Source: Bacteroidota bacterium
Lineage (GTDB): Bacteria; Bacteroidota; Bacteroidia; AKYH767-A; 2013-40CM-41-45
Direction: 5' to 3'
NCBI GenBank assembly: GCA_031411835.1
Contig: JANOBV010000231.1
Coordinates: 1 to 15,343 of the forward strand
DNA: 15,343 bases
Made by a program: the position numbers and the translations under genes. The notes beneath the pieces were generated by a model. The model ran no database searches, had not been told where the DNA came from, and saw nothing but the letters and a program-made list of their open reading frames with translations. Positions 4,254-12,712 of the stretch are shown here, piece after piece. Within the stretch, counting starts at the first letter, position 1, and each line of letters opens with the position of its first letter.

Positions 4254-7200
4254 TTAATTCTTCTTCTCTGAAAATTTAATGATCTTATTATACAATTCAT
4301 TTTCGTCAATTGGTTTGGAAATGTAATCGTTCATTCCAATAGCAATACATTTTTCGACATCCATAGAGGTTACATCTGCCGTAAGTGCAATAATTGGAAC
4401 TGTAGATTTCATCACTTTTCGAATATGTTCGGTCGCCTGAAAGCCATTCATCTCCGGCATTTGTAGATCCATTAATACAATATCATATTCTTTTGAATGC
4501 ATCATTTCAATAGCAAGTTTTCCATTGCCTGCAATATCAAAGTCGAAACCATAGTCCGATAAAATTATTTTTATAAGAAGTTGATTCAATGCAATGTCTT
4601 CTGCTACCAGAACTTTTACATCTTTTAATTTTGATTCGTGAATTTCACCATCTAAAATAATTTTCTTCTCATTTCCATTTTCACGTAAGAGCATCGTTTT
4701 GCCTTTCTTAAAGCGGAAGACAAAGCTAAAAGTAGAACCATAATCTCTTTTACTTTTTACTTCTATAGTTCCACCCTGAAGTTCAACGAGCTTTTTTACA
4801 ATTGAAAGACCCAGGCCGGTCCCTCCATAAAGTCTCGAAGTTTCATATGCTTCTTGTCCGAAGTCCTCAAAAATTCGCCCGAGTTGATTTTTGTGAATAC
4901 CAATTCCGGTATCAGCAATGCTAAATTCAATTGCGATCTTATCTTCGTCTTCATTAAGCGACTTTATTTTAATTGTAATCGATCCCGAAGACGTAAACTT
5001 AACGGCGTTACTTACCAAATTTAGAATGATCTGACGTAGGCGCATCGGATCCCCGATAACTATTGCCGGAATTGAAGCATCATAATCTTTTATTAGTTTC
5101 AGATTCTTTTCTAGAATTTTAGTCTCAAAAAGTTGAAGCGTGCCGGCGATAGAATCCGATAGGTTGAAAGGGATTTGTTCAAAGGTCATTTTCCCGGAAT
5201 TCACTTTGGCTAAGTCAAGGATATCGTTTATTAGAATGATCAAAGCCTCACCGGATTCTTTAACAGCACTTACATATTCTTTTTGTGGAGAGTTTAATTC
5301 TGTTTTAAGTAGGATATTTGTGAAACCAATTATTGAATTCATCGGAGTACGAATTTCATGACTCATATTGGAGAGAAACTGCTGCTTAGATATCACTGCG
5401 TCTTCAGCAATCTTAGTTTTTACGTCTGCATTCTTTTTTGCCTCTATCAAATGTACATTACTTTCTTCAATTTTCTTATTTGCTTTCTTCTCAATTTCCA
5501 ATTGTAACTCTAGGGCTTTATTCTCTTTTACCTGGAGTTCTTTAGCAAGAAGCTTTATTTTTGTAATATCTGAAATAGTAAGAACAATCAGTTCTTCTCT
5601 ACTGCTTTCGTGAACTATTTTATGAGCATTTAACAACATTGTTTTTTGGCCGATATCCGGAAAGGTGTGCTCAACTTCAAAATCTTGAAATTGCTTGTTT
5701 TTAATAAGAATACTCTCTAGAAGATCGCGGAGCTTTGGAATATTCCATTGATTGTTGCCAAGCTTAAAAAGTGATATTCCTACGCTTTCATCTTGCGTAA
5801 CATGAAACATTTTACAAAAGGATTGATTTGCTGATTTGATGCAAATGTCTTTGTCCAAAATTAACATTGGTTCGTGAATTGTAGACAATATCGATTCATA
5901 ATAATTATAGATTTCTTCTACTTGTTGAATTCGTGCTTGCAATTCCTGATTTGTAGTGATCAGCTCCTCATTCGTTGATTCTATTTCTTCTTTTGATGTT
6001 TCAAGTTCTTCATTTAAGCTTTGTAATTCTTCATTACTCGAAACTATTTCTTCATTGGCACTTTGTAATTCTTCATTAGCAGCTTCTTGATCTTGTGTGA
6101 TGGATGCCATATCATAACGGGAAGCTGATATCTCTTCTTCTAGTTTTTTTATTCTGCGGTCTTTTGAAATGGAATTATTTTTTACGCCTTTTGTTGTTTG
6201 TTCAAATATTTCAGGTTGTTCAAGACCTGAAAATACAATCACTAATAAGTCTTCTTCGCCATCGATCTTTATTGGAGTCACATCTAATGAAATTATTCTA
6301 ATTGCATTTCCGGGCTTGTCACGATTCATTTCTATACCGGTTTTTCGTACCGTTTGTTTTGTTTTTATTGCATGATGAATTGCATTTCGTAACTCAAATG
6401 TAATTTCCATATGAGCCATTTTTAAAATATTCAAACTCGCTTTACCTGCTGTATTGAGAAGATATGGCGAAGTATTGCCTCTGAATTGGAGAATCTCCAG
6501 ATCATGGTTTATCACTACGCTGGCCGGAGCATATTCTGCAAGTAAAAATGAATCAAAGTTTGTGCTTAGACTACTTGTAACTATGGATGGAGCTTTACTT
6601 GGTTGAATGATCTCTACATTATTTCCTTTTTGCAAATTAGTTTGCAAAACTCTAGGCGAAATATCTGAAATACTTAGGGCCCTTGTGCTTTTTTTACGAG
6701 TATATATTTTATACTTTTTATTTATCTGCGTACTGAAAAGTTGTATTGAAGCGCCTACAGTTTCAGATTTTCCAAGCATTAAGCACCCGTTTTCATTTAG
6801 AGCGTAATTGAAAGTAGAAATAATTTTTTTCTGCGCAAGTGTATCGAGGTAGATAAGCAGATTTCGGCAACTGATAAAATCCATTCTTGAAAATGGTGGA
6901 TCTGTTAGAATATTATGAATTGCAAAGATACAAACATCTCGAAGTGATTTTGAGATACGATATTTATCTTTTGTCTTTGTAAAAAATCGCTGAAGTCTTT
7001 TGGAAGAAACATTTTTTAATTGATCTTTCGAATATTCTCCATTGCGTGCATTAGTGATCGCTTCAGTACTGAGATCAGACGCAAAGATCTGGAAAGGAAC
7101 GTTGCTGTATTTGCTGTCTTGAACTTCAAGAAGTAGCATTGCAATAGAATAAACTTCTTCACCGGTCGCACAAGCAGGAACCCAAATTCGCAAAGTATCG

Positions 7201-8180
7201 CCTTGTTTTTTATTTTTAAGAAGTTGTGGTAAAACCGATTTTTTTAAGAATAAAAATGAATCCGGATCTCTGAAAAATTCAGTTACATTTATTAGTAGAT
7301 CATCATATAGCGAGTTTACTTCATGGTTATCTTTTTCGCATAGTTGTGTGTATTCTTTAAGGACACTCATTTTATGAATCAACATCCTGCGTAAGATGCG
7401 TCTTTTAATAGTGTTTTTTTTATAATGACTGAAGTCGACACTTTTTTTCTTGTGTAAAAGTTGGATCAATTTATATAGATCGACATCATTATCATCAATT
7501 GAATCTTCAGGAGCTGCTTTTATCTCTTTGCTTTTTATTAGAGGATGTTTACTGATCCAATTTATTTTTTTTCCTATTTCACTTGGCGAAAGAACAAAAT
7601 CAGCTACGCCTGCTGCAATTGCAGATTGAGGCATGCTCTTGAATTTTGAAGTTTCGTTTTGCGCAAAAGTGATACCGCCAACAAGTTTTATATCTTTTAA
7701 TCCTTCAGTTCCGTCAGTACCACTTCCTGAAAGAACTACGCCAATTACATTTTCTTTGTGAGTTTGCGCTAGGGAAGTAAAAAGAACATCGATTGATAGA
7801 GTGAATCCTTTCGCTCGAGGAAGTAATGCTATATGCCCATCTGTCACTTCAATGCCTTTGTTATATGGCATTACATAAACATTGTTGGGCTCCATTTTAT
7901 CCATATCTTCCACATCCTGAACTTTCATAGATGTTACTTTTGATAAAATGGAAGTTAGGATGCTTTTATGATCAGGACTTAAATGCTGGACATAAATAAA
8001 TGCCATGCCTGTAGTAGGTGACAAACTTTTCAGAAATTGAGTAACGGCTTCAAGTCCACCGGCAGATGCGCCAATAGCAACAACAGTGAATGAATTCCAA
8101 TCTGTTTTGATTTTAGAAAGTGGTGCTTTCTTCTTTAAAACAGGTGCTTTCTTTTTTATTTGTGTTGGTTTCTTTTTCAT
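4254..8180 (-). CDS. Hybrid sensor histidine kinase/response regulator with fused CheB methylesterase and CheR methyltransferase domains (CheB-CheR-coiled coil-PAS-HisKA-HATPase_c-REC), soluble
   Basis: 1308 aa with ATG at 8180-8178 and no transmembrane segment. The CheB domain shows VVAIGASAGGLEA...HIALLPRAKG. The CheR domain shows LLINVTEFFRDP...LRIWVPACATGEEVYSIAMLLLE. The PAS region follows. The H-box is NMSHEIRTPMNSIIGF, with the His codon at plus 5358-5360. The G-box is GGTGLGLSIVKKLVELQGG. The C-terminal receiver is KVLVAEDIALNQ...DIVLMDLQMPEMNG. The N-terminal tail is Lys-rich (KKKPTQIKKKAPVLKKKAPLSK). Confidence 0.9.
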   Translation of the reverse strand: MKKKPTQIKKKAPVLKKKAPLSKIKTDWNSFTVVAIGASAGGLEAVTQFLKSLSPTTGMAFIYVQHLSPDHKSILTSILSKVTSMKVQDVEDMDKMEPNNVYVMPYNKGIEVTDGHIALLPRAKGFTLSIDVLFTSLAQTHKENVIGVVLSGSGTDGTEGLKDIKLVGGITFAQNETSKFKSMPQSAIAAGVADFVLSPSEIGKKINWISKHPLIKSKEIKAAPEDSIDDNDVDLYKLIQLLHKKKSVDFSHYKKNTIKRRILRRMLIHKMSVLKEYTQLCEKDNHEVNSLYDDLLINVTEFFRDPDSFLFLKKSVLPQLLKNKKQGDTLRIWVPACATGEEVYSIAMLLLEVQDSKYSNVPFQIFASDLSTEAITNARNGEYSKDQLKNVSSKRLQRFFTKTKDKYRISKSLRDVCIFAIHNILTDPPFSRMDFISCRNLLIYLDTLAQKKIISTFNYALNENGCLMLGKSETVGASIQLFSTQINKKYKIYTRKKSTRALSISDISPRVLQTNLQKGNNVEIIQPSKAPSIVTSSLSTNFDSFLLAEYAPASVVINHDLEILQFRGNTSPYLLNTAGKASLNILKMAHMEITFELRNAIHHAIKTKQTVRKTGIEMNRDKPGNAIRIISLDVTPIKIDGEEDLLVIVFSGLEQPEIFEQTTKGVKNNSISKDRRIKKLEEEISASRYDMASITQDQEAANEELQSANEEIVSSNEELQSLNEELETSKEEIESTNEELITTNQELQARIQQVEEIYNYYESILSTIHEPMLILDKDICIKSANQSFCKMFHVTQDESVGISLFKLGNNQWNIPKLRDLLESILIKNKQFQDFEVEHTFPDIGQKTMLLNAHKIVHESSREELIVLTISDITKIKLLAKELQVKENKALELQLEIEKKANKKIEESNVHLIEAKKNADVKTKIAEDAVISKQQFLSNMSHEIRTPMNSIIGFTNILLKTELNSPQKEYVSAVKESGEALIILINDILDLAKVNSGKMTFEQIPFNLSDSIAGTLQLFETKILEKNLKLIKDYDASIPAIVIGDPMRLRQIILNLVSNAVKFTSSGSITIKIKSLNEDEDKIAIEFSIADTGIGIHKNQLGRIFEDFGQEAYETSRLYGGTGLGLSIVKKLVELQGGTIEVKSKRDYGSTFSFVFRFKKGKTMLLRENGNEKKIILDGEIHESKLKDVKVLVAEDIALNQLLIKIILSDYGFDFDIAGNGKLAIEMMHSKEYDIVLMDLQMPEMNGFQATEHIRKVMKSTVPIIALTADVTSMDVEKCIAIGMNDYISKPIDENELYNKIIKFSEKKN
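5935..6095 (-). repeat. Intragenic 21-bp imperfect tandem repeat (~7 copies, plus-strand unit a(a/t)ttcttcatt-N10) encoding seven heptads ANEELQS/ANEEIVS/SNEELQS/LNEELET/SKEEIES/TNEELIT/TNQELQA in the kinase linker
   Basis: Direct reading of 5960-6095: agttcttcatttaagctttgt / aattcttcattactcgaaact / atttcttcattggcactttgt / aattcttcattagcagcttcttg. Protein: QEAANEELQSANEEIVSSNEELQSLNEELETSKEEIESTNEELITTNQELQARIQQ. Confidence 0.85.
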
Positions 8181-9906: not shown

Positions 9907-10941
9907 GTGTATAAAAATTATTATAAGGACAAGATCATTTTAGTAACGGGAGGTGCAGGTGCGATTGGACGAAATTTAGTTGAAGCATTGGCATTATTCA
10001 ATGCAAAAAAAATCATAGTGCTTGATAATTTGTCCTCGTCATATTTGTGGAATTTCCCAAATTATGAAAACGTGTTATTTGTTAAAGGTGATATAAGAAG
10101 TGATGATGATTTGAAAAGAGTATTTCATCATAGACCCACAATAGTATTCCATTTGGCGGCTTTCTTTGGCAATCAGAATTCTGTTGATTATCCACTTATT
10201 AGTGAAGACGTCAATAGTCGAGGCATACTAAAACTATTGGAATATTGTGTACTTACCGGTAATATTGAACGATTTGTTTATACAAATTCCGAGGGCGGAG
10301 CTTATGGTGATAATTGCTCTATTCCATACAAAGAAGATGAAATATCAATGCAATTGAGTTCACCATATTATATATCAAAAATGTCGGGGGAGTCATATTG
10401 TAATTATTATTACAAATTTTATAATTTACCTATAAGTGTTTTAAGATTATTTAATTCCTATGGTCCGGGAGAAGTTCCCGGGCAGTATAGAAATGTAATA
10501 CCTAATTTTATTTATTGGGCACTTAATAAGCAGCCATTGCCGTTGACCGGTGATAATAGAATTTCAAGAGACTTTGTATTTGTTAGCCAAACCATAGAAG
10601 GAATTTTAAGAGCCGGTTATTTTAAAAAGGCTATTGGTACATCAATTAATATTGCAACAGAAGAAGAAACATTTATTTACGATTTAGCTGAGCTGATAAA
10701 TTCAAAGACGGCAAATCGATCCGGTATAAGAATTCTGAAGCAAAGAAAATGGGATACACGTGTAAAAATTATTGGCAGTAATAATAAATGTCAAGAAATA
10801 TTAAAATTCAAACCTTGCTCAAACCTGGAAGCGGGATTAGATTTGACGATTGATTGGTTTAAAGAAAATATTGCAAGTATTGAAATGAGTGTGGAATTCT
10901 CGCCAGGAATAAATCCTGCTTTAGATATTTCCAATTCCTAA
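9907..10941 (+). CDS. NAD-dependent nucleotide-sugar epimerase/dehydratase (extended SDR family)
   Basis: 344 aa. The Rossmann motif is ILVTGGAGAIGRNL and the catalytic motif is YxxxK (SPYYISKMSGE). The start is GTG at 9907; there is no in-frame ATG before the Rossmann motif, and an upstream stop lies at 9892-9894. The protein is very AT-rich, with a Lys/Asn/Tyr/Ile bias. Confidence 0.8.
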   Translation: MYKNYYKDKIILVTGGAGAIGRNLVEALALFNAKKIIVLDNLSSSYLWNFPNYENVLFVKGDIRSDDDLKRVFHHRPTIVFHLAAFFGNQNSVDYPLISEDVNSRGILKLLEYCVLTGNIERFVYTNSEGGAYGDNCSIPYKEDEISMQLSSPYYISKMSGESYCNYYYKFYNLPISVLRLFNSYGPGEVPGQYRNVIPNFIYWALNKQPLPLTGDNRISRDFVFVSQTIEGILRAGYFKKAIGTSINIATEEETFIYDLAELINSKTANRSGIRILKQRKWDTRVKIIGSNNKCQEILKFKPCSNLEAGLDLTIDWFKENIASIEMSVEFSPGINPALDISNS

Positions 10942-12183
10942 AAGAGTATGATAAAAATCAATCATATTTTTAGCTGAAATATTGTAGTGATAATTTTTCA
11001 TACTTAGCTGTCTTGCATTCTTGCTGGTAGTCATACAGAACTCCTTTGAATTTACGCACTTTATTATTTGGTTTGCAAATTCATCTGGAGTGTCAGCGAT
11101 CAAAATATTTTTCCCGTTTTCGTAATCTATGCCTTGAGCACCAATAGTTGTAGCAATTATTGTTTTTCCTAGAGCCAATCCTTCGATGATCTTTGCCCTA
11201 ATTCCACTTCCTGATAATAAGGGGACAATCATAATTTGTTTTTCTTCTTGAAACTCGACAGGAGAATTTACTTCACCAATAATATCCACTATTTTTGATC
11301 TATGTTGAAATACCCATTTTGGCATTTTTCTCCCGGCAATAATTATTTTTCCATTGAATTGTTTTTTTTCTAGTAAGGGTATCACATTTTTTAAAAACCA
11401 TTCAACGGCTTCAACATTTGGAAGCCAATCCATTGACCCCAAATGATAAACAATGGGTGCGTGATCAAATTGTTTTTCAAAGTTATAATTGTTTAATTTT
11501 TCGTAATCGTAGCCCATTGGAATAATTATTATCGGGGCATTATTGTTGAATGATTTAAAAATATCTGCATCTTCTTTTGTTAGTGCAATTACCCCATCTA
11601 ATTCTGAACCTATTTTTTGTTCATATTTTTTCAAGCGATTGGTCGCAATCCTTAGTGCTATTTTTTTAATTGGATTATTGACATTATTAATGTAACGCTC
11701 CCAGATAATATATTCGATATTTTGTGGGCGGAGAATTATTTTTGCAGTTGAATTATTTTTTATTGTATTGATATATTTACATAGGTATAAATGCTCCAAC
11801 TGAATAATATCGAAACACTCTGTTTGTAAAATGGATTTTAGTTTTTTTTCGAAATTTGAGGAGATGAATCTCTCGATAAAGTATGATTCCGACCGGAGAG
11901 TATTCGAAATTAATCGAGCCGGGTTTATATTCGTATCAACAGTTACACATTCAAATCGTGTACTGACAACATATTCTTTAGGGATTGAATCTAAATTGAC
12001 ATAACTACGAGTAGGATTAATTGCCAGTGTTTTTACATCTACATTATTGGCTAATAATCCCCTTGTTGTAAAGTGCATTACTTGTGCCCCGCCATCAATG
12101 GGAGGGTTTGGCATCTTATTACAAATTTGAAGAACTTTCAATTCCCTTATCTTTAAGAATAAAACCGGATAATTGTTGAGCAA
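10921..12183 (-). CDS. Glycosyltransferase family 4 (GT-B fold, 'glycos_transf_1')
   Basis: 420 aa. The C-terminal donor-binding motif is GSGIRAKIIEGLALGKTIIATTIGAQGIDYENGKNILIADTPDEF (E-x7-E-type GT4 signature). An N-terminal Rossmann strand is LKVLQICNK. The true start is uncertain: M at 12183 lies 65 nt inside the SGNH gene. Confidence 0.8.
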   Translation of the reverse strand: MLNNYPVLFLKIRELKVLQICNKMPNPPIDGGAQVMHFTTRGLLANNVDVKTLAINPTRSYVNLDSIPKEYVVSTRFECVTVDTNINPARLISNTLRSESYFIERFISSNFEKKLKSILQTECFDIIQLEHLYLCKYINTIKNNSTAKIILRPQNIEYIIWERYINNVNNPIKKIALRIATNRLKKYEQKIGSELDGVIALTKEDADIFKSFNNNAPIIIIPMGYDYEKLNNYNFEKQFDHAPIVYHLGSMDWLPNVEAVEWFLKNVIPLLEKKQFNGKIIIAGRKMPKWVFQHRSKIVDIIGEVNSPVEFQEEKQIMIVPLLSGSGIRAKIIEGLALGKTIIATTIGAQGIDYENGKNILIADTPDEFANQIIKCVNSKEFCMTTSKNARQLSMKNYHYNISAKNMIDFYHTLLGIGNI

Positions 12184-12712
12184 CTGTATGGCATCCTTCG
12201 GAATTTAAGTGAACTCCATCATAGAAATCTTCATCTGTTAGATTAAGATCTAAGCACCTTAATTTATTTTCAAATGCTAGTTGCTCTATACATAAATTAA
12301 ACTCACCTACTTGTTCATTCATTGAGTAATTATATGGATAGAATACCTTTTGTGTGAATCGAGGAATTTTAAGAAGTAATATATTTTTCCCAACGGACAA
12401 TAACTCTAGCTTAATAATAAGTTGATTGTATGCAATTTTAAAATCCTTGATACTGACATGATTTTTTATATCGTTGGTTCCAATCATCACCGTTATTAAA
12501 CTTGGGTATATACTCTTGTAATTTTCTAGAAAAGGATTTATTGAACGAATTAAGTCCATAGTCGTATGTCCATTCGTGGAATGGTTTATTACATGCCATT
12601 TTTTATTCAACCTATTGCTAAGTAAATCACCGCAAATTTCAGGATAACCCAAATAGCTTCTTGCGCCATATGTGATGCTATCACCAAAAGTTAATAATGT
12701 TTCCCAGTTCAT
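12119..12712 (-). CDS. SGNH/GDSL-family hydrolase (esterase or acyltransferase/deacetylase-like)
   Basis: 197 aa. Block I is LTFGDSITYG with the catalytic Ser. Block III is GTND. Block V is DGVHLN (D-x-x-H). ATG at 12712-12710 lies 2 bp after the upstream gene's TAA. Confidence 0.8.
   Translation of the reverse strand: MNWETLLTFGDSITYGARSYLGYPEICGDLLSNRLNKKWHVINHSTNGHTTMDLIRSINPFLENYKSIYPSLITVMIGTNDIKNHVSIKDFKIAYNQLIIKLELLSVGKNILLLKIPRFTQKVFYPYNYSMNEQVGEFNLCIEQLAFENKLRCLDLNLTDEDFYDGVHLNSEGCHTVAQQLSGFILKDKGIESSSNL

Follow-up and report, generated by a model that had tools for sequence, protein, structure and literature searches.

What do the CheR methyltransferase and the CheB methylesterase act on when both are fused to a sensor kinase? 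Adaptation through CheR/CheB methylation is regarded as a property of chemoreceptor arrays. A protein encoded on contig JANOBV010000231.1 of a Bacteroidota bacterium carries both enzymes and, behind them, a long predicted helix in which a pair of Glu residues recurs every seven residues. We analyzed this gene within 15,343 nt of the contig (this whole stretch of DNA is called the window below). The best explanation of our results is that the heptads form an exposed acidic face of a long helix joining two PAS-fold sensor domains, and that this helix characterizes a large multi-phylum family with the core CheB-CheR-flexible linker-PAS-like-helix-PAS. That the helix is moreover a built-in methyl-accepting segment for the fused CheR and CheB is suggested by the sequence comparisons, and we hold it to be an evenly balanced proposition.

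Sequence and conservation of the heptads

Residues 702-750 read NEELQSA, NEEIVSS, NEELQSL, NEELETS, KEEIEST, NEELITT and NQELQAR. A preliminary description, made from the sequence alone, had taken all seven heptads as matching the consensus of chemoreceptor methylation sites. The array is real, and six heptads match x-E-E-[LI]-x-[ST]-[ASTL] (in short, E-E-x-x-[ST]-[ASTL]), but the seventh (N-Q-E-L-Q-A-R) ends in A-R and does not fit. The coordinates had been given as 5935-6095, and the heptad array itself lies at 5931-6077 on the minus strand. Among 5000 shuffles of the whole protein and 20000 shuffles of the helix composition, the longest in-register run was two and never six.

Relatives were collected by a HMMER search against 1.84 billion cluster representatives (50%-identity clusters). 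The best 150 proteins had 40-72% identity, and most of them align with residues 1-760 as one stretch. An alignment of 133 representatives was used, for which 132 relatives were chosen by an anchor in heptad 4. The 18 representatives left out were either truncated or, while keeping the Glu pairs, variable at positions 5-7 of heptad 4 only; the exception was P0245, which is described below. In this alignment (n = 133) the mean top-residue frequency was 0.81 in the heptads, 0.63 in CheB, 0.63 in CheR, 0.39 in residues 490-680 and 0.41 in the PAS domain. Among segments of 21 residues within the first 900, the top two were 720-740 (0.88) and 698-718 (0.79), and the best catalytic segment reached 0.78.

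The Glu-Glu pairs of heptads 2-6 were kept in 131-133 of the 133 sequences. In heptad 1 the two positions were Glu in 123 and 128 sequences, respectively. In heptad 7 the first residue was Glu in 46, Gln in 38, Asp in 31 and His in six, and it was followed by Glu in 125. Most relatives have further in-register pairs on both sides of the array, namely Q/E-E at 682-683, E-E/D at 696-697 and E/D-E/Q at 752-753. The heptads span exactly 49 residues in 131 of the 133 sequences. Positions 1-4 and 6 are fixed (N, E, E, L and S/T), and positions 5 and 7 vary. The helix between the PAS domain and HisKA of the same protein (residues 878-930) served as an internal control for conservation. In 49 orthologues with the same architecture, 38 of the 49 heptad columns were invariant, compared with two of the 53 columns of the control helix. 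An alignment of orthologues had been proposed earlier as a check on the heptads, and it turned out in their favor: orthologues, and also members from different phyla, retain the Glu pairs and the number of heptads more strongly than the enzyme active sites. This lends weight to the view that CheB and CheR work on the helix of their own protein.

There is another way to understand the helix. It may be only a structural, signal-transmitting coiled coil, with CheB and CheR acting on other proteins under the regulation of the PAS domains. Indeed, helices joining a PAS domain to another PAS domain or to an output domain are commonly dimeric coiled coils. However, a purely structural coiled coil would keep its core and let its surface drift. 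The heptads allow two registers, one placing Leu at 'a' and position 7 at 'd', the other placing Asn at 'a' and Leu at 'd'. In both of them the core excludes the Glu pair and the Ser/Thr, and these surface residues are invariant across phyla. It seems, therefore, that something reads the surface. That the heptads are better conserved than the active sites, and that the control helix is far less conserved, also speak against an exclusively structural role. All evidence considered, including that given in the following sections, we think that this alternative is rather unlikely.

Two unusual relatives should be mentioned. P0324 is the only sequence in which the catalytic His of CheB is replaced (by Pro), and its heptads are likewise the most degenerate of all (DE RE EE EE EE EK AE). 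P0245 has a shortened, degenerate helix with one Glu-Glu pair, which continues straight into the H-box of HisKA. They are possibly natural experiments on the co-dependence of enzymes and helix, each a single case.

Structure around the helix

The preliminary description had placed the heptads in a linker between CheR and the kinase. We modeled residues 484-880 as a monomer with AlphaFold2 from an alignment of 120 homologous fragments (mean predicted local distance difference test score, pLDDT, 84.6). The model consists of a low-confidence linker, a PAS-like alpha/beta domain (helix, two strands, helices and three strands), a short loop, the helix and the PAS domain. The heptads are thus central in a helix that connects two PAS folds, rather than in a CheR-to-kinase linker: they make up the middle of a single predicted helix of 97 residues. 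The Foldseek search agreed with this, as the model aligns over about 340-390 columns with the tandem-PAS proteins DosP, FixL, PpsR, LOV-PAS-HK and NifL. The module is therefore predicted to be really PAS-helix-PAS. Fold matches of this kind (PpsR, FixL, DosP and LOV-PAS-HK, all tandem-PAS proteins) would also be expected if the helix only transmitted signals.

Sequence families gave little information on this region. Between CheR and the annotated PAS domain lie roughly 280 residues that matched no Pfam or NCBIfam family, and the helix gave only generic coiled-coil noise. The PAS-like domain itself had no match in Pfam (E up to 10) or in the NCBIfam copies used, and a search of the PDB sequences with residues 484-760 returned weak generic coiled-coil matches only and no receptor. 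For some relatives, the newer Pfam accessions PF28159, PF28256 and PF24161 are listed; they are absent from the Pfam copy used.

The helix spans 102 residues in 123 of the 133 relatives, and the median net charge over the 49-residue heptad stretch is -13. Relatives have 41-83 residues in the linker after CheR, which is rich in K, P, A, S and R and has a mean top-residue frequency of only 0.22. It is probably flexible, judging from the model and its composition. Being rich in Lys and Arg, it could serve as a flexible and oppositely charged tether beside the acidic helix.

We also considered the signaling helix (S-helix), a coiled coil of about 40-50 residues that stands just before an output domain and has the central polar motif E-R-T. 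The heptad helix lies between two PAS-fold domains, does not precede the output and has no E-R-T. It was not assigned to this class.

Distribution and architecture of the family

We scanned genomes, one per species, with an alignment of the 70-residue helix alone as the query. At least 559 loci in more than 10 phyla were confirmed, and 80 of them were kept for inspection. The hosts of these 80 are Bacteroidota, Gamma-, Beta-, Alpha- and Deltaproteobacteria, Cyanobacteria, Acidobacteriota, Verrucomicrobiota, Gemmatimonadota, Planctomycetota, Chloroflexota, Actinomycetes, Myxococcota, Elusimicrobia and Ignavibacteriales. The helix and the PAS-like domain were present in all 80. Wherever the contig extends far enough, the heptads are found near residue 680-730, behind CheB, CheR and the PAS-like domain, with the exception of locus L059. 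One locus (L017) is cut by the contig end. The six apparent exceptions to the architecture were split genes. In five split or frameshifted loci (L005, L008, L012, L040 and L043), CheB and CheR were found just upstream, in other frames or open reading frames (ORFs) than the helix. In the sixth (L059), tblastn recovered CheR in part and did not find CheB. The split loci are either frameshifts in the assembly of metagenome-assembled genomes or true pseudogenes or split genes. That a scan with the helix alone finds CheB and CheR upstream is counted in favor of a methyl-accepting helix. The near-invariant motif NEELQSxNEE[ILV]xSxNEELQSxNEELET[SA]KEE may also be used as a specific marker, since all 80 loci inspected after the helix-only scan belonged to the family.

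Behind the helix, the family is more variable. A PAS family followed the helix in 55 of 61 loci, and it was PAS_10 in 41 of them. HisKA/HATPase modules were found downstream in 38-39 of the 61 loci, a receiver in 22 and a SpoIIE phosphatase in one; GAF domains occur in a few members. About one third of the relatives end after the PAS domain or domains and have no kinase or other recognizable output (L021, L029, L035, L037, L042, L044, L047, L055, L057, L062, L063, L065, L066, L078 and others). As a kinase is present in only about two thirds of the loci, the constant unit is CheB-CheR-linker-PAS-like-helix-PAS, and the kinase is optional. It seems that this unit works alone or with a separate partner. 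The kinase-less third would also fit a PAS-regulated modifying enzyme whose substrates are other proteins. Outside bacteria, HK19 of Physarum polycephalum was reported as a CheB/CheR-type histidine kinase, which implies that the module may have crossed into Amoebozoa.

The fused enzymes and their chemotaxis context

The CheB domain aligns to 1CHD, 1A2O and 6YMZ, with the Ser of GAS*GG, the His of QH and the Asp of GxDG matched. We take these three residues to be the Ser164-His190-Asp286 triad of Salmonella CheB. They are kept in 129, 132 and 133 of the 133 sequences, respectively. The CheR domain aligns to 5FTW, 5XLY and 1AF7, and the residues of the S-adenosylmethionine (SAM) motif are present. 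G340, D369, N440 and Y444 of CheR are kept in all 133 sequences. In the basic CheR_N helix, 130-133 sequences keep Arg260, 261 and 264. The conservation of the catalytic residues suggests that both enzymes are under selection to work, and hence that a substrate exists.

The receiver domain of classical CheB gates the esterase. Here the CheB domain starts about 30 residues from the N-terminus without such a domain, and a very basic tail (residues 1-33) stands in its place.

A tblastn search with the Tsr cytoplasmic domain and CheW found neither in 976 kb, comprising the window and about 8 kb around each of the 80 loci, although the queries were approximate and were run without a positive control. 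Together with the intact enzyme residues, this is counted in favor of a methyl-accepting helix, and it weakens the case for substrates in trans: the neighborhoods of the 80 loci showed no receptor, no CheW and no other che gene. Reports on two other bacteria point in the same direction, with no sign of co-regulation or clustering with che genes. In Phaeobacter inhibens, the expression of a CheB/CheR chimera was unchanged while all eight che genes fell up to 32-fold, and in R. centenum, a CheB/CheR hybrid is located outside the che clusters. On the other side, a CheB without a receiver is known from genuine chemotaxis systems, in the F3 class (PMC9239204), which is consistent with action on other proteins.

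A candidate methyl-accepting helix

Under the reading that we favor, the fused CheR would methylate the second Glu of the in-register pairs. Six of these pairs are invariant and, with the weaker flanking ones, the number of candidate sites would be six to ten. The receiver-less fused CheB would remove the methyl groups. The reaction may take place within one chain or across a dimer, with the enzymes reaching the helix by means of the flexible linker of 41-83 residues. Each methyl group would remove one negative charge from a 49-residue stretch of about -13, and the packing or twist of the helix in the dimer would change. The altered helix would then change the passage of signals between the PAS domains and the output, which is here a hybrid histidine kinase. 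We infer all of these, that is, the methylation itself, the residues modified, the choice between cis and trans, and the effect on output.

The comparison with known methylation sites favors a built-in methyl-accepting helix. In Tsr, sites 297, 304 and 311 lie seven residues apart on one helix, and it is usually the second residue of a pair that is methylated (PMC1079850). E168, E175 and E182 of FrzCD have the same spacing of seven residues, and HE and TE pairs are methylated there as well (PMC2535941). The heptads have this spacing, the residue pair and, two residues further on, small residues in common with these sites.

Several points weigh against this reading. No biochemical evidence for it was found in the literature searched. 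CheR and CheB classically act on an antiparallel four-helix bundle, whereas here a single continuous helix is predicted, presumably forming a two-stranded parallel coiled coil in a dimer. No receptor consensus includes the Asn that is invariant at heptad position 1. Receptors often have sites encoded as Gln, but Gln hardly ever occurs in the six core pairs. In about one third of the relatives there is no kinase to tune. Moreover, some Bacteroidetes have chemoreceptors, and so do many host lineages (Proteobacteria, Myxococcota and Cyanobacteria), as possible substrates in trans; the occurrence of chemoreceptors in many host phyla agrees with action on other proteins. The small residues also differ. 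The preliminary description had seen the context of receptor sites in them, and this did not hold in detail: they are Ser/Thr and then Ala/Ser/Thr, [ST]-[AST], and not the classical Ala-Ser/Thr (consensus in PMC1079850), and the small pair on the upstream side stands nearer by one residue than it does in receptors.

It is also conceivable that the acidic helix is a pseudo-substrate. It would bind the CheR_N helix, the active clefts or the basic linker, and would position or inhibit the enzymes while staying unmodified. Such docking would account for the co-occurrence and the surface conservation equally well as a substrate would, and sequence analysis cannot separate the two. The near-invariant arginines of CheR_N and the Lys/Arg-rich linker between CheR and the PAS-like domain are consistent with docking, and the near-absence of Gln from the six core pairs is unlike true receptor sites. 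However, the full sets of catalytic residues in both enzymes imply a real substrate, and no other one is encoded nearby. In addition, six to ten repeated identical sites seem to be more than docking needs. We thus consider docking improbable, and return to methylation of the helix.

Extended to the whole family, methylation of the helix would amount to a self-contained glutamate-methylation memory, with CheR as the writer, CheB as the eraser and a helix of six to ten sites as the medium. It would operate in cytoplasmic PAS sensors and kinases of more than 10 phyla, outside the chemotaxis clusters and without a chemoreceptor, CheA or CheW. We put this forward tentatively, with a confidence that stays slightly below even.

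The repeat at the DNA level

The preliminary description had also suggested that the 21-bp repeat allows slipped-strand mispairing to add or remove whole heptads and thereby to vary the number of modifiable sites, which would make it a contingency locus. A 21-nt periodicity does exist: the identity is 58-62% at lags of 21, 42 and 63 nt, compared with about 30% elsewhere. There is one exact in-register repeat of 18 nt at an offset of 42 nt, the longest found, and in the few relatives with a helix of different length, the changes include +7 and -14 residues, beside others that are not multiples of seven. However, Tandem Repeats Finder reported no array in positions 5700-6400, and the repeat thus exists at the protein level and not as a tandem array of DNA. 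Neighboring 21-nt units share only 48-71% identity. Neither does the constancy of the heptad span over many phyla fit gain or loss of heptads. Each heptad retains a conserved identity of its own, for example NEELET[SA] in heptad 4 and KEE[LI][QE]S[TSA] in heptad 5, so there is no sign of homogenization. The 21-nt periodicity is merely what the peptide repeat imposes. The slippage model is therefore effectively refuted, and we give it next to no credence.

Features of the gene and the window

The features of the gene are listed in the table. The protein has the order of a CheB/CheR fusion sensor protein, with a receiver-less CheB followed by CheR_N and CheR, the PAS-like domain, the heptad helix and PAS. 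It is also a hybrid histidine kinase, as it has the His of HisKA within the H-box SHEIRTP, HATPase_c and a C-terminal receiver. An identical protein (P0121) from a metagenome assembly is on record at NCBI, and proteins of Ferruginibacter, Aurantibacillus, Emticicia and Taibaiella (Bacteroidota) have 64-72% identity to it.

Features of the CheB/CheR fusion gene, with residues numbered in the protein and positions in the window
Feature	Residues	Position	Strand	Basis or remark
Whole gene, 1308-aa CheB-CheR-PAS-like-helix-PAS-HisKA-HATPase-REC (receiver) hybrid sensor kinase		4254..8180	minus	ORF list, translation, Pfam
Basic N-terminal tail	1-33	8081-8180	minus	Low-complexity, precedes CheB; begins MKKKPTQIKKKAPVLKKKAPLSKIK
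CheB methylesterase catalytic domain	34-206	7563..8081	minus	Pfam PF01339 CheB_methylest, E 3.7e-53
CheR methyltransferase	CheR_N 235-284; SAM-binding CheR 298-483	6732..7478	minus	PF03705; PF01739
Linker from CheR to PAS-like domain	484-536	6573..6731	minus	AlphaFold2 pLDDT 40-47, low conservation
PAS-like domain	537-653	6222..6572	minus	AlphaFold2 fold, Foldseek
Predicted continuous alpha-helix, 97 residues	671-767	5880..6170	minus	AlphaFold2 pLDDT 95-98 (model residues 188-284)
Seven heptads, candidate methyl-accepting Glu pairs	702-750	5931..6077	minus	Translation
PAS domain directly following the helix	760-874	5559..5903	minus	Pfam PF00989, E 4.1e-11
PAS-to-HisKA helical linker, LAKELQVKENKALELQLEIEKKANKKIEESNVHLIEAKKNADVKTKIAEDAVI	878-930	5390-5550	minus	Lys/Glu-rich, without the EE-heptad pattern
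Output module	HisKA 931-996; HATPase_c 1043-1157; receiver 1190-1300	4281..5390	minus	PF00512; PF02518; PF00072

The other genes of the window encode an SPFH/Band 7 protein, a C92 amidase, a DUF1801 protein, two MFS transporters, an epimerase, a glycosyltransferase, a GDSL esterase and a Gate-domain protein, and no chemotaxis gene was found among them. The glycosyltransferase ORF (10921-12183, minus strand), which is listed with a TTG start, overlaps the upstream GDSL-esterase ORF (12119-12712, minus strand) by 65 nt and the convergent epimerase ORF (9907-10941, plus strand) by 21 nt. Its TTG start is probably placed too far upstream.

Significance

If the helix is indeed methylated, methylation-based adaptation or memory would be a portable module, present also in histidine kinases and in PAS proteins without a kinase. 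Two-component signaling would gain adaptation or memory without a chemoreceptor, and the occurrence of CheB and CheR genes outside che clusters would be explained. The protein would also offer a compact single-protein system for following how charge neutralization on a helix leads to a change of signaling.

Comparison with known systems

Methyl-accepting chemotaxis proteins (MCPs), such as Tsr/Tar of E. coli and FrzCD of M. xanthus, have the same arrangement of Glu or Gln pairs every seven residues on one helix face, followed by two other residues and two small ones, and are served by the same enzyme families, CheR and CheB. The differences are numerous. The heptad helix has no MCPsignal domain and no detectable sequence homology to MCPs: PF00015 MCPsignal had no match in the full protein, nor among the families listed for residues 484-760 at E up to 10. 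It thus falls outside the MCP family, although it may function as the methylation region of an MCP does. It is predicted, in a monomer model, as a single helix of 97 residues and not as a helical hairpin in a four-helix bundle. Six to ten consecutive candidate sites lie on one helix, compared with three on methylation helix I of Tsr. The Asn at heptad position 1 is invariant, the enzymes are in the same polypeptide, and the output passes through PAS and HisKA instead of CheA/CheW. Gln residues are a further point. Tsr sites 297 and 311 are presumably encoded as Gln, and the Gln-Glu pair of heptad 7 had at first been set beside such sites. This parallel is loose: in Tsr the amide is at the modified second residue, but here the Gln comes first, at a position that varies in relatives. 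At Tsr site 4, Gln at the first position of the pair reduces methylation by about 35-fold (PMC1079850).

The coiled-coil linkers of PAS sensors (PpsR, FixL and LOV-PAS-HK) provide the best fold matches. As in these proteins, a helix joins PAS folds and a dimer is expected. However, at 97 residues the heptad helix far exceeds them in length, it is strongly acidic, with about -13 over 49 residues, and its exposed positions are invariant across phyla. By comparison, the PAS-to-HisKA linker of the same protein behaves like an ordinary PAS-sensor linker.

CheR and CheB bind a C-terminal pentapeptide of receptors that is carried on a flexible arm. The fused enzymes resemble such tethered chemotaxis enzymes in that a flexible tether keeps them close to the presumed sites, but the tether would be covalent here, a linker of 41-83 residues, and there is no pentapeptide. 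The auxiliary CheB of the F3 class shares with the fused CheB the lack of an N-terminal receiver domain (PMC9239204).

Finally, the protein is a full-length member of the CheB/CheR fusion family, the name of which covers just the two enzyme domains. The Joint Genome Institute (JGI) names such relatives 'two-component system, chemotaxis family, CheB/CheR fusion protein' or similar, and the family probably corresponds to KEGG K13924. In the literature searched, which left most subscription journals outside its coverage, CheB/CheR chimeras were mentioned only in passing, and the heptad helix or a substrate was not described. The annotated fusion family was already known, and what seems to be new here is methylation-based adaptation that is apparently built into PAS sensors and kinases.

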